Assembly (NCBI GenBank): GCA_964642505.1
Contig: CAZXQY010000003.1
Coordinates: 324 to 64,323, forward strand
DNA length: 64,000 nucleotides
Source: an uncultured Gammaproteobacteria bacterium
GTDB lineage: Bacteria > Pseudomonadota > Gammaproteobacteria > Ga0077536
Reading direction: 5' to 3'
In this document: one piece after another, positions 4,427 to 7,957 of the stretch
Layout: every line of letters begins with the position of its first letter
How positions within the stretch are numbered: position 1 is the stretch's first letter
The notes under the pieces: model-generated
Database searches by the model: none
Seen by the model: the letters and a program-made list of their open reading frames with translations, nothing else
Told to the model about the DNA's origin: nothing
Translations under genes and position numbers: made by a program

Positions 4427-5704
4427 CTACAGGATATAACCTCTTTCATTATGTTCAGCTATATCCAGGCCTTTAGACTCATCCTCATCGGAAGCTCGTA
4501 AACCATTTATAGCCTCTACTACTTTTAAAATGACGAAAGTAACAACTGCACACCAAACTATAGTAGCGAATACTCCTATCACTTGAACCTTAAGTTGCGA
4601 GCCCATAGCCATACCATCCCGATAGCCGGCACCACCGTATTCCGCTGCAACAAAAACTCCTGCCAGAATACAACCGAGCATGCCGCCGACACCATGTACA
4701 GGAAAGACATCTAAAGAATCATCTATTTTTAAGGTTCTCTTGATGGATTGTGTAGCAAAATAACAGACGACACCAGCAGCTAATCCTATAATCAGACCTC
4801 CCACCGGACCCACATATCCAGACGCTGGAGTAATAGTACCTAGACCAGCAACCATTCCAGTCACGATGCCTAATACGCTTGGTTTTCCATATCTGAGCCA
4901 CTCTATAGTCATCCATGCCAGAGAAGCTGCAGCCGCAGAAATGTGTGTAACCAGCATCGCCATACCGGCGTCATTATTTGCCGCTACAGCGCTGCCAGCA
5001 TTAAAGCCGAACCACCCAACCCAAAGCATTGATGCGCCCATAACAGTTATTGTTAAGTTGTGAGGCGGCATTGGAGTATCTGGAAACCCTTTTCGATTTC
5101 CCAAAACCATCGCTGCTACTATCGCCGCCACGCCCGCATTAATATGTACGACAGTTCCGCCAGCAAAATCAAGGAAGTTCTTATCCCCTAACCAGCCTCC
5201 GCCCCAAACCCAGTGGCATACGGGCGCATACACCAAAATTAACCAGAACACGCTAAACAGTAGTACCGAAGAAAATTTCATCCTCTCAGCAAACCCACCT
5301 ATGATAAGGGCTGGTGTGATAATCGCAAAGGTCATCTGAAACATCACGAAAACCGTCTCAGGAATTGAGCCGCTCATGCTGTCTTTAGCCACATCAGTGA
5401 GAAATAAATTACCCGACCCTATAAAAGCGTTGTATTTTCCCCCATCGCCAAACGCCAATCCATAACCCACTGCCATCCACACAATTGACATCAAGCAAGC
5501 GAGAGCAAAACATTGCATTAACACCGACAACACATTTTTACTGCGAACCAGTCCGCTATAAAAAAGCGCCAAACCCGGCAAAGTCATGAACAATACTAAA
5601 GCTGTCGACGTCAACAACCAAGCACTGTCACCCGTATCGATGGTATCCCCAAAAGCCGATCCCGACGACAGAAATACAGTTAAACCAAGAATTAAACGAA
5701 ACAT
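4427..5704 (-). CDS. amtB: Ammonium transporter AmtB (with N-terminal signal peptide)
   Basis: Amt/MEP family signatures (DFAGGTVVHINAG, GxxxGNRKG). Start placed at MFRLILGLTVFLSSGSAFG (signal peptide). Directly downstream of glnK. Confidence 0.9.
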   Translation of the reverse strand: MFRLILGLTVFLSSGSAFGDTIDTGDSAWLLTSTALVLFMTLPGLALFYSGLVRSKNVLSVLMQCFALACLMSIVWMAVGYGLAFGDGGKYNAFIGSGNLFLTDVAKDSMSGSIPETVFVMFQMTFAIITPALIIGGFAERMKFSSVLLFSVFWLILVYAPVCHWVWGGGWLGDKNFLDFAGGTVVHINAGVAAIVAAMVLGNRKGFPDTPMPPHNLTITVMGASMLWVGWFGFNAGSAVAANNDAGMAMLVTHISAAAASLAWMTIEWLRYGKPSVLGIVTGMVAGLGTITPASGYVGPVGGLIIGLAAGVVCYFATQSIKRTLKIDDSLDVFPVHGVGGMLGCILAGVFVAAEYGGAGYRDGMAMGSQLKVQVIGVFATIVWCAVVTFVILKVVEAINGLRASDEDESKGLDIAEHNERGYIL

Positions 5705-5791
5705 TTCTATTCCCTCCCTAATAAAAAGAACGCCTTTGTACTCGTATAAAGACGTCCTCTCATACAAATATATTTTCGAACGATTTTTATG

Positions 5792-6130
5792 TTAGAGCGC
5801 TTGAGGTCCTGTCTCACCAGTCCTTATTCGGACAACATCCGTAAGCTCACTCACAAAAATTTTGCCGTCACCGATAGAATCAGTATTCGCAGTCTTCCTA
5901 ATACTTTCTACCACCGCACTCGCTTGATCGTCATCGACCGCAATCTCTATTTTTGTTTTAGGTATAAAGTCAACCTGGTATTCGGCTCCTCGATACAATT
6001 CCGTGTGACCTTTTTGTCTTCCGAAGCCTTTTATTTCAGTTACGGTCATACCCTCAACACCACATTCTGACAACGCCTCTCGGACATCATCTAATTTAAA
6101 GGGTTTTATAACAGCTGTTATTAATTTCAT
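5792..6130 (-). CDS. glnK: Nitrogen regulatory protein P-II GlnK (canonical)
   Basis: [20 protein letters not shown]...[18 protein letters not shown] (T-loop with Tyr51) ...GDGKIFV...RIRTGE. The longer ORF from 6178 adds 16 non-conserved residues. Confidence 0.9.
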
Positions 6131-6334
6131 ATAAGTTCCCCTATTCATAAGCTCACCCAGCTCAGCAAGGTACTTCAACCAAGCTTGGCAACTATTTTCA
6201 TTTCCGAACTGCCATTATAACAGCCGGCATTTTTGTTTATCCAGACAAAAAAATCCACCTTCCACCAGAGATCTCTATCCTTTCATAGAGACAGTTTACA
6301 AATGTCTATCAAACTATTCTTTTTAAACTAAATA

Positions 6335-7579
6335 TCATTTAGTAAATTCAGGATAAGCCTCTAATCCACAATCCGTAACATCCAACCCATCACTTTCTTC
6401 TTCTTCAGTTACACGAATGCCAATAGTCGACTTTATCGCAGTCCAAAGTATTAAGGAGGTAATGAAAACCCACCCGAATATTACTACGATACCCAATATC
6501 TGGGAGCCCATGCTAGCTTCGCTGTTGCTCAGACAAACGGCCAGCAATCCCCAAATTCCAGCAGTACCGTGAACCGATATCGCGCCTACGGGATCGTCGA
6601 TTTTTCTCTTATCTAAAAATAGAATAGACAAAACAACTAAAATACCACCTATCCCTCCTATTATCGTAGCCAAAAGCGGCGTGGGGGTTAACGGTTCTGC
6701 CGTAATAGAGACCAACCCGGCTAGGGCACCATTTAGAGCCATGGTTAAATCCGCCTTTTTGAACATAAATTGCGACGTAATCAACGCCAAAATGCAACCT
6801 CCCGCAGCAGCAGCGTTTGTATTTACAAAAATTAATGCGACAGCATTAGATTTTGCCACATCCGAAACAACTAGTTCCGACCCACCATTAAAACCGAACC
6901 ACCCAAACCAAAGCAGGAAGGTTCCTAATGTTGCGAGCGGCAAATTGGCTCCAGGAATTGCGTTGACCTGTCCGGCGGGTCCATATTTTCCTTTCCGAGC
7001 ACCCAGCAGCATGACGCCTGCCAAGGCCGCCGTCGCTCCGGCCATATGTACTACTCCCGAACCCGCAAAATCCAAGAAACCTTTTTCGTCAAGGAAACCT
7101 CCACCCCACTTCCAGTAGCCCTCGATCGGATAAATGAAACCAGCCATAAAAACCGCGAACAGTAGAAAAGACCATAATTTCATTCGCTCAGCTACTGCGC
7201 CCGAGACAATCGACATCGCTGCAGCCACAAATACCGCTTGGAAAAAGAAATCGGACAGATTCGAATAATAAATCTGACCTTCACTGGCAATCACAGCGGC
7301 TGCCTCATTGTCTGTACCACCTAAAGTAGAGGGAAGCCCTGGCACCAGGGAGTTTATCGCTTCGGGAGGGTACATTAAGGAATACCCGCATAGGAGATAC
7401 ATTGTACAAGCCACCGAATATAGTACGATGTTCTTTGTCAAGATTTCGGCGGTATTTTTAGATCGTACCAGGCCAGCTTCGAGCATTGCAAAGCCACAGG
7501 CCATCAACATCACAAATGCTCCCATAACCAAGAAATAAAAAGTATCGAGCGCATATTTTAACTCTACGACGGATTCCAC
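6335..7579 (-). CDS. Ammonium transporter (second copy, no obvious signal peptide)
   Basis: Amt family protein of 414 aa (DFAGSGVVHMAG, GARKGKYG), directly downstream of a second PII gene. Confidence 0.9.
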   Translation of the reverse strand: MESVVELKYALDTFYFLVMGAFVMLMACGFAMLEAGLVRSKNTAEILTKNIVLYSVACTMYLLCGYSLMYPPEAINSLVPGLPSTLGGTDNEAAAVIASEGQIYYSNLSDFFFQAVFVAAAMSIVSGAVAERMKLWSFLLFAVFMAGFIYPIEGYWKWGGGFLDEKGFLDFAGSGVVHMAGATAALAGVMLLGARKGKYGPAGQVNAIPGANLPLATLGTFLLWFGWFGFNGGSELVVSDVAKSNAVALIFVNTNAAAAGGCILALITSQFMFKKADLTMALNGALAGLVSITAEPLTPTPLLATIIGGIGGILVVLSILFLDKRKIDDPVGAISVHGTAGIWGLLAVCLSNSEASMGSQILGIVVIFGWVFITSLILWTAIKSTIGIRVTEEEESDGLDVTDCGLEAYPEFTK

Positions 7580-7618
7580 TTTTGATATCCTCCTAATATT
7601 CTTTGTTTTATATTCCAG

Positions 7619-7957
7619 TTAAAGCACGGCAGAGATCGCATCTCCTCTGCGGATCCTTAAGACTTCCAAAAACTTGCTTGCGGAAATTTTTCGGCCACCT
7701 ATTTCACCGGTCTCGCATGTTGCCTTGATAGCTTCGACCACGTTTGGAACCAAATCCTTATCAACTACCACTTCTACTTTCGTTTTCGGTAAAAAATCAA
7801 CTTGATAGTCAGAACCTCTATAGAGCTCAGTAAGTCCTTTCTGATATCCAAAACCTTTCATTTCTGGAACAGCAGGTCCCTTTACGCCTATCTGCGTGAG
7901 AGTTTCTATGAGATCATCTATTTTGAATGATTTGATAACCGCAGTTATGATTTTCAT
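7619..7957 (-). CDS. Divergent P-II (GlnB/GlnK-like) signal-transduction protein
   Basis: PII fold of 112 aa. The T-loop reads GFGYQKGLTELYRGSDY (Arg38 to Tyr, His42 to Leu) and the B-loop reads GEIGGRKISA instead of [10 protein letters not shown]. Confidence 0.8.
   Translation of the reverse strand: MKIITAVIKSFKIDDLIETLTQIGVKGPAVPEMKGFGYQKGLTELYRGSDYQVDFLPKTKVEVVVDKDLVPNVVEAIKATCETGEIGGRKISASKFLEVLRIRRGDAISAVL

Follow-up and report, generated by a model that had tools for sequence, protein, structure and literature searches.

A divergent, lineage-specific GlnK encoded ahead of a marine-subtype ammonium transporter in an uncultured gammaproteobacterium

The window analysed here, a stretch of 64,000 nucleotides from an uncultured Gammaproteobacteria bacterium, carries four consecutive open reading frames (ORFs) on its minus strand that form two pairs, each composed of a gene for a PII protein followed by a gene for an ammonium transporter (Amt). 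This layout, described in an earlier note made from the DNA alone, is borne out by the ORF list of the window and by Pfam, which assigns the P-II and Ammonium_transp domains to the four products. The upstream pair consists of PII-2 (positions 7619 to 7957, 112 residues), a divergent GlnK orthologue and the subject of this report, and Amt-2 (6335 to 7579, 414 residues), a marine-subtype ammonium transporter with a GTG start codon and an AGGAGG ribosome-binding site. The two genes are separated by 39 nucleotides on the same strand. With its gene situated immediately upstream of the transporter gene, an arrangement conserved in relatives, PII-2 is a GlnK by nomenclature. The downstream pair consists of GlnK1 (5792 to 6130, 112 residues) and AmtB1 (4427 to 5704, 425 residues), an AmtB-type ammonium transporter. 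In the ORF list GlnK1 is longer and begins with a TTG codon at 6178, and AmtB1 extends from 5767 to 4427; the ATG at 6130 was used for the former, and the ATG at 5704 was taken as the likely true start of the latter. AmtB1 then begins with MFRLILGLTVFLSSGSAFG, a predicted signal peptide encoded at about 5648 to 5704.

The two PII proteins are 57.5% identical and the two transporters 29.7% identical. The modules therefore are best regarded as ancient paralogues situated side by side, and the term "tandem duplicated", which the earlier note had applied to them, is misleading, as it suggests a recent event. The description of the downstream pair as canonical is justified: GlnK1 matches both PROSITE-type signatures of the family, and the N-terminal extension of AmtB1 fits a signal peptide. 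No additional PII or Amt was found in the window, and no glnD, ntrBC, glnA or glnB is present among the ten large ORFs that were checked.

PII-2 aligns without gaps to the solved PII proteins of Escherichia coli, namely to GlnB (1pil) over residues 1-110 (E = 6e-31) and to GlnK (1gnk/2nuu) over residues 1-111, and the E. coli numbering can therefore be applied to it directly. In this numbering PII-2 carries the changes P10S, R17I, L28P, T29A, T31P, R38Y, H42L, K85E, D88G, G89R, F92S, V93A, T104R and E106D, and its B-loop reads GEIGGRKISA. The hallmarks of the protein are Y38, L42, A29, P28/P31, G88-R89, S92-A93 and R104. The residues K9, G35, G37, Q39, G41, Y46, R47, G48, Y51, K58, G87, K90, R101 and R103 are retained, as is I86. 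R38Y, H42L, the altered B-loop and the preserved Y51, which had been noted before, are thus not a product of misalignment by eye. The earlier list was nevertheless incomplete, as it missed P10S, R17I, L28P, T29A, T31P, T104R and E106D. The further suggestion that the altered residues contact the effectors and the transporter pore is correct insofar as effector-binding positions are changed, but a contact made by H42 is unsupported in the cited literature.

The window sequence is metagenome-derived, and the aberrant residues could in principle have come from sequencing or assembly errors or from a chimeric contig. However, the identical 112-residue protein is found on at least six contigs of the ENA, JGI and Logan assemblies, which come from different samples and assemblers, and the nucleotide sequence of PII-2 is the same across all six contigs. 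Sequencing error is therefore excluded as the source of these residues. A second allele has 25 derived residues in common with the window allele, and the chance that the protein is an artefact of any of these kinds is negligible.

In order to see how unusual the changes are, PII-2 was compared with a panel of 119 distinct ungapped PII sequences taken from the fetched loci. Position 38 is Arg in 99 of the 119 and otherwise Gln, Lys, Leu, His or Ala; position 42 is His in 82 and otherwise Lys, Tyr, Glu, Phe, Val or Leu. These two positions, which the earlier note had stressed, are naturally variable and the least unusual among the changes in PII-2. K85E is also common (Glu in 29/119). In contrast, D88 and G89 are invariant throughout the panel (119/119). 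Position 29 is Thr in 110 sequences and Ser in seven, but never Ala; position 92 is Phe or Trp in 113, but never Ser; and position 104 is Thr in 114, but never Arg. Likewise, in 30 genome loci from many phyla that have a PII gene directly upstream of an Amt gene, the G87-D88-G89 segment is invariant (30/30) and position 29 is Thr or Ser. The exceptional losses in PII-2 are D88G, G89R, T29A, F92S and T104R. Altogether, PII-2 has residues absent from the panel at positions 17, 28, 29, 31, 33, 38, 67, 82, 88, 89, 92, 93, 96 and 104.

Published structures place several of these residues in the effector pocket. Phe92 lies beside the adenine ring, Thr29' belongs to the residues hydrogen-bonded to ATP, and residues whose side chains bind ligands are well conserved throughout the PII family (PMC8395244). 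Gly87 and Gly89 bind the alpha-phosphate through their backbone NH groups, and Thr29 ranks with the most conserved residues of PII proteins (PMC7919409). Position 38 is more tolerant: the GlnK of Corynebacterium glutamicum has Gln38, MtGlnK2 and the GlnKs of Methanococcales have Ile38, and the main chain makes at least part of the contact with ATP at this position (PMC7919409; PMC8395244). R38Y alone, therefore, need not abolish ATP binding.

PII-2 scores 67.7 bits on Pfam PF00543 (cutoff 25, residues 1-105), compared with 118 bits for GlnK1. On a hidden Markov model built from the panel its score is 120.7 bits, below all 119 members (minimum 126.9); its sister orthologue scores 167.7. The C-terminal (B-loop) signature [ST]-x3-G-[DY]-G-[KR]-[IV]-[FW]-[LIVM], a PROSITE pattern that was checked against the panel, is matched by 108 of the 119 panel sequences, by GlnK1 and by the orthologues in L089 and L009 described below, but neither by PII-2 nor by its second allele. 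The uridylylation signature Y-[KR]-G-[AS]-[AE]-Y is missed in its strict form by the YRGSDY of PII-2 owing to E50D, a residue found in 5/119 of the panel; Y46 and Y51 are both present. Among the NCBIfam equivalog models, PII-2 reaches 114.9 on GlnB NF008111 (cutoff 202) and 111.7 on GlnK NF007946 (cutoff 181), and GlnK1 itself, with 174.4, is slightly under the cutoff of the latter. Models of SbtB, PstA(DarA) and other PII-like families do not match PII-2, which is recognized by Pfam P-II and the NCBIfam GlnB and GlnK models only. The PstA-type chains 4r25 and 4rx6 are weak matches (E about 1e-10).

Relatives of the locus were found by using Amt-2 as the query, after peptide patterns specific to PII-2 had proved uninformative: 288 pattern matches in the genome scan included no relative. 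A metagenome scan with a four-sequence PII alignment, restricted to N-terminal patterns, returned mostly distant PIIs, the informative one being contig L089. This contig has all four genes, with identities to the window of 90.6% for Amt-2, 92.9% for GlnK1, 78.6% for AmtB1 and only 70.5% for the upstream PII. The closest genome, the gammaproteobacterial metagenome-assembled genome L009, has an Amt-2 that is 81% identical and the same gene order as the window, PII-Amt(marine)-GlnK-AmtB. The Tara contig L002 carries a gene of the BMFP family followed by PII and Amt and is cut after Amt-2; its Amt-2 is 89.6% and its PII about 70% identical to that of the window. The BMFP-PII-Amt order is present in L001-L008 (L002 among them), L089 and L009.

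In all three of L089, L009 and L002 the upstream PII is fully canonical. The ancestral and ordinary state in this gammaproteobacterial group is evidently a canonical PII dedicated to a marine-type Amt. Because the sister loci have canonical PIIs in the same layout, the PII-2 of the window is a lineage-specific derivative and not a paralogue produced by tandem duplication. In a collection of 15 billion proteins the aberrant form is represented by two alleles only, that of the window and P0001/L001 (96% identical); this count comes from a word-index protein search with PII-2, which gave six matches, and was confirmed by cluster look-up. The upstream PII is absent from several relatives and from SAR11 (L010, L012, L014, L025, L030).

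Copy number and PII linkage in the marine-type Amt subfamily vary widely between genomes. Two marine-type Amt genes lie in tandem in L017 (2278-5212), with one PII ahead of the pair; the SAR11 loci L025 and L030 also have such a tandem pair, but the fetched locus contains no PII. The PII of L002 (1134-1472), otherwise a canonical orthologue, has G93 (GDGKIFG) and does not match the C-terminal signature in its strict form. Small departures in beta-4 are thus present in the clade beyond the lineage of the window.

L001 belongs to the same population as the window: its folA, apaH and BMFP genes are 99.5-99.6% identical in nucleotides. However, between L001:1643-3040 and window positions 6866-8260 the Amt-2 allele is only 89.9% identical (synonymous divergence, dS, 0.47) and PII-2 97.3%. 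The divergence looks like a homologous-recombination tract that starts in the intergenic region between BMFP and PII-2. The putative tract brings in a divergent amt allele, the aberrant PII included.

The Tajima relative-rate test, with L009 as the outgroup, shows 27 changes unique to the window PII-2 and two unique to its L089 orthologue (chi-square 21.6). PII-2 has thus evolved about 13 times faster than its sister. The corresponding numbers are 4 and 3 for GlnK1 and 19 and 10 for Amt-2. The 29 lineage-specific replacements in PII-2 have a mean BLOSUM62 score of -0.41, compared with a neutral expectation for single-step nonsynonymous changes of -0.28 +/- 0.31; the replacements between the canonical orthologues of L089 and L009 average +0.70. 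Six of 26 changed columns in PII-2 are conserved at 90% or more, where chance predicts 7.1 (P = 0.39), whereas none of the 25 differences between L089 and L009 falls into such columns (6.8 expected by chance, P = 9e-5). In position and chemistry the replacements in PII-2 cannot be told apart from unfiltered mutation. As the changes land on conserved columns at the chance rate and with neutral-like chemistry, they point to relaxed constraint rather than to a designed specialization. The decay appears to be ongoing, for D88G arose after the window and L001 alleles had split, and the Shine-Dalgarno sequence of the L001 allele is weakened from GAGG to GAGT. Synonymous sites are saturated relative to the sisters: the proportion of synonymous differences (pS) from L089 is 0.69-0.87, and dS from L089 and L002 is 1.4-2.0 or undefined. 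The ratio of nonsynonymous to synonymous rates (dN/dS) on the window branch and the length of the relaxed phase are therefore beyond reach, and the relative-rate, spectrum and conserved-column tests were used instead.

The transporter downstream of PII-2 is evidently intact. Amt-2 scores 654 bits on NCBIfam TIGR03644, "probable ammonium transporter, marine subtype", well above the cutoff of 514. This model aligns from its first position with just 8 residues ahead of it, in keeping with the earlier statement that the upstream Amt lacks a signal peptide. Its closest solved structures are the Amt proteins 6eu6, 8qj3 and 2b2f. The motifs FFFQAVF, YWKWGGG, LDFAGSGVVH, WFGWFGFNGGS and SVHG, which cover the Phe-gate, Trp, Asp, twin-His and FGFNGGS features, are all present. 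The C-terminal region is conserved among the orthologues and includes the family-typical Cys in "D/E-C-G". The idea that Amt-2 has co-evolved with PII-2 was considered and rejected, this region being unchanged and the relative-rate imbalance of Amt-2 slight. AmtB1 scores 467.2 bits on TIGR00836 (cutoff 343.3) and 456.8 on NF007947, the equivalog for AmtB of the E. coli type, for which the cutoff is 657. The alignment to AmtB1 starts at model position 22, leaving room for an N-terminal signal peptide.

Within the population, Amt-2 has eight nonsynonymous and four synonymous polymorphisms, compared with 17 and 45, respectively, in neighbouring genes (Fisher P = 0.017). Of the nonsynonymous polymorphisms, four fall at residues 79-102, in a loop with poor conservation relative to the solved Amts. 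The replacements G72P, A77S, I85T, D102Q and G107N, unique to the window, are situated in or beside the periplasmic loop 72-102 (window 7273-7366). Residues 72-102 may form a hypervariable exposed loop.

The two pairs are probably separate transcription units, of which PII-2/Amt-2 would be nitrogen-regulated through a promoter of the sigma-54 type. A sigma-54 type -24/-12 element, TGGCACGACATGTGCT (8070 to 8085, minus strand), lies 113-128 nucleotides upstream of the PII-2 ATG and has one mismatch to TGGCAC-N5-TTGCW. An element of this type, GG-N10-GC, is also found 94-137 nucleotides upstream of the orthologous PII in L001, L002, L089 and L009. Further upstream, a half-palindrome CGCACAATAATGGGGCA (8203 to 8219) with three mismatches to TGCACC-N5-GGTGCA is a candidate NtrC-type enhancer; the block TGCC..A..A.TGTGCG around it is kept in the window, L001, L089 and L002, whereas the intergenic region averages only about 69% identity. 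A second candidate NtrC-type site, also a three-mismatch match, is at 8171 to 8187, and its GGTGC core is invariant in the four-lineage alignment. Matches to the sigma-54 and NtrC consensus sequences are not significant window-wide, and only sites that are positionally conserved in relatives were retained. Ahead of glnK1-amtB1 there is a putative sigma-70-like promoter, TGGATA, 18 nucleotides, TG-n-TATAAT (6214 to 6243, minus strand), with 10/12 matches and an extended -10 element. L089 has a similar TGnTATAAT element at the equivalent place, after a terminator hairpin. A scan of the window and comparison with the relatives found no sigma-54 element upstream of GlnK1, and the promoter scan identified no promoter belonging to Amt-2 itself. 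A perfect 10-bp hairpin, CTGGAGGCAG-tagtg-CTGCCTCCAG (4387 to 4411, minus strand), 16 nucleotides past the AmtB1 stop codon, is probably a terminator. It was read directly from the sequence, as the terminator scan, which found no T tract, did not call it.

The following history would account for these observations. In the ancestral state, two glnK-amt operons, each with a promoter of its own and with Amts from subfamilies that diverged anciently, stood side by side and the upstream PII was canonical. In the window population alone, selection on the upstream GlnK would have been largely lifted, and about 29 replacements would have accumulated. T29A and F92S would remove adenine contacts, D88-G89 becomes Gly-Arg in the B-loop, two prolines enter strand beta-2, and the C-loop would be altered by T104R and E106D. 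The resulting PII-2 would be unable, or poorly able, to read ATP, ADP and 2-oxoglutarate, and could be described as a degenerating, effector-blind GlnK. Since its T-loop apex (Y46, R47, G48, Y51) and the side chains that bind phosphate and 2-oxoglutarate survive, the protein might still insert into Amt-2 and plug it. R47 is the pore-blocking residue in the E. coli GlnK-AmtB complex (PMC4274968). A residual role of this kind is possible because the ORF is intact, the T-loop apex is kept, and PII-2 still has K9, Q39, K58, K90, R101 and R103. Amt-2 would in that case be controlled by nitrogen-dependent transcription, by modification of Y51, or by the neighbouring GlnK1. We give a probability of roughly 0.5 to this interpretation, in which selection on effector sensing by PII-2 has lapsed and what is left is a crippled or effector-blind GlnK, perhaps still with the capacity to plug Amt-2. 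SAR11 marine-type Amts function without any PII (PMC3870248), so that some marine bacteria can do without a cognate PII, and since SAR11 and several of the relatives lack the upstream PII, it is plausible that the cognate PII is dispensable.

A number of observations, however, weigh against a complete lapse of selection. Every contig has the PII-2 frame open, with exactly 112 codons, and neither allele has an insertion or deletion (indel); by a rough estimate, in which 4.5% of single-nucleotide changes create stops, strict neutrality over about 35 nonsynonymous changes would have produced about two stop codons as well as indels. Only one of 16 positions is changed in the T-loop apex (43-58), a segment picked after seeing the data, compared with 28 of 96 elsewhere (one-sided Fisher P 0.043). 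Of the eight ligand contacts made by side chains, six survive. The window and L001 alleles differ by four nonsynonymous and five synonymous changes, all transitions, corresponding to a dN/dS of 0.23 (P = 0.035 with all mutations modelled and 0.14 in a transition-only model). Finally, not one segregating site is present in the 339 nucleotides of PII-2 over six near-clonal contigs, the expected number being 3.2 (P = 0.04). Taken singly, these signals are all marginal, but jointly they argue against long strict neutrality. The PII-2 branch may have had a different history, an adaptive burst followed by purifying selection. On the other hand, the open frame could be maintained by polarity on Amt-2, which is close behind PII-2 and has no identified promoter of its own.

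If polarity on Amt-2 is the only reason for the open frame, PII-2 being the first cistron of a sigma-54 operon, or if the decay is merely recent, then the gene would be a functionless remnant or incipient pseudogene. This we consider unlikely, although the neutral-like spectrum, the placement of changes on conserved columns, the two prolines in strand beta-2 and the alteration of an invariant glycine by G89R would all be expected of such a gene. The weakened Shine-Dalgarno sequence in L001, the allele dN/dS, which under the transition-only model does not differ significantly from 1, the absence of the upstream PII in several relatives and SAR11, and the gap of only 39 nucleotides to an Amt-2 with no identified promoter of its own also speak for it. 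The conserved T-loop apex with the six retained side chains, the frame of exactly 112 codons in both alleles and the lack of segregating sites speak against it, albeit each of them marginally, with P around 0.04. The earlier note had proposed instead that PII-2 is a sub-functionalized regulator of its own transporter. Parts of that proposal stand: effector positions are altered, Y51 and R47 are kept, and the gene shares an operon with its own Amt. However, the dedication to this transporter is ancestral and the pattern of change is neutral-like. Taken as adaptive sub- or neo-functionalization, with a remodelled pocket selected for regulating Amt-2 independently of effectors (by GlnD acting at Y51, or by control of expression) or for sensing a different anionic ligand, the proposal is distinctly unlikely, and none of the observations favours it in particular. 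It draws on the intact ORF and sigma-54 promoter, and on the fact that each of the three cleft-forming loops is changed but R47 and Y51, the plug residues, are not. The adenine contacts are lost and the phosphate and 2-oxoglutarate side chains kept, with new Arg residues at 89 and 104 as R38 disappears. There is also the precedent of Af-GlnK2, one of three GlnK paralogues of Archaeoglobus fulgidus, which is fully insensitive to 2-oxoglutarate (PMC3198391). Nevertheless, the cleft is not significantly enriched in changes (9/25 cleft positions and 20/87 elsewhere, P = 0.15), many radical changes lie beyond it (R17I, D67K, A82E, D95K, G108I), and the substitution spectrum equals the neutral expectation. 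In addition, the form is limited to one population and two alleles, D88 is still changing between these alleles, and the C-terminal region of Amt-2 has no compensating change.

A version in which PII-2 has given up the recognition of adenine nucleotides but is still functional, as an effector-blind GlnK or as one with a new ligand, is quite improbable. It would keep the T-loop plug, Y51 and a more cationic pocket composed of K9, Q39, K58, R89, K90, R101, R103 and R104, and the gating of Amt-2 would depend either on uridylylation alone or on an anion other than a nucleotide. PII paralogues of E. coli form heterotrimers, and PII-2 might similarly act as a modulating subunit that assembles with GlnK1, giving hybrid clefts and an altered effector response. 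The adjacency of the two genes and the similarity of their products would allow this, but prolines 28 and 31 sit in the strand that forms the subunit interface, and the two genes appear to be under different promoters. Such an assembly is considered very improbable. Overall, the aberrant PII-2 is a lineage-specific variant in an ordinary layout, and is more likely to be degenerating than newly specialized.

The closest well-described counterpart is the glnK-amtB operon of E. coli, with its GlnK-AmtB complexes 2NUU and 2NS1. The order of PII and Amt on one strand, the length of 112 residues and the T-loop apex Y46, R47, G48 and Y51 are the same in PII-2, and GlnK1/AmtB1 of the window are a close match to the E. 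coli pair, signal peptide included. However, PII-2 lacks T29, R38, D88, G89, F92 and T104, and it is paired with an Amt of the marine subtype, which shares about 30% identity with proteins of the AmtB type. A. fulgidus, with three amt-glnK operons, likewise has several Amts each with its own GlnK, one of which has partly lost its effector response (PMC3198391). Af-GlnK2 still binds ATP and ADP and is distinguished by a proline at position 86 (PMC3198391), whereas PII-2 keeps I86 but has lost the adenine contacts and D88-G89, a far heavier alteration. The change in PII-2 is also confined to one population, whereas Af-GlnK2 is fixed in its species and biochemical data exist for it. The GlnKs of C. 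glutamicum and Methanococcales are natural PIIs without Arg38, as is PII-2, but they keep T29, G87-D88-G89-K90 and F92, which PII-2 does not. SAR11 (Pelagibacter) resembles the window in its marine-type Amts, which belong to the same subfamily neighbourhood and there occur in tandem, but PII genes are absent from it, whereas PII-2 is present and open in the window with a canonical GlnK1 beside it. In SbtB and PstA/DarA, PII-like proteins with re-purposed pockets, the PII fold carries modified B- and T-loops and serves other ligands or targets. They are old families, whereas PII-2, 70% identical to canonical GlnK orthologues, is a recent derivative.

Effector binding is considered the universally conserved control of PII proteins (PMC4274968), so that a GlnK losing its nucleotide and 2-oxoglutarate pocket would be informative. 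With its plug loop kept and a working transporter downstream, PII-2 would amount to a natural experiment in assigning the functions of a PII protein to its parts, and it would bear on whether the abundant marine-type Amts need a PII at all. Should the gene simply be decaying, the case would be one of ordinary loss of a redundant paralogue, and its value would be as a caution against reading lineage-specific substitutions as specialization.

Divergent from PII-2 on the plus strand is the BMFP-family (PF04380) gene (window 8261-8506, 81 residues), and this pairing is kept in L001-L005, which include L002, and in L008. The 303-bp intergenic region that the two genes share holds the sigma-54 element and two conserved blocks upstream of it. 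Directly downstream of AmtB1, on the minus strand, a gene at 3236-4282 encodes a 348-residue protein with cyclic-nucleotide-binding and rhodanese domains; it has a similar position in the near-identical contig L003. Elsewhere in the window, at 49881-53171 on the minus strand, a protein of 1096 residues has the architecture of a one-chain acyl-CoA carboxylase, with biotin carboxylase, biotinyl carrier and carboxyltransferase domains.

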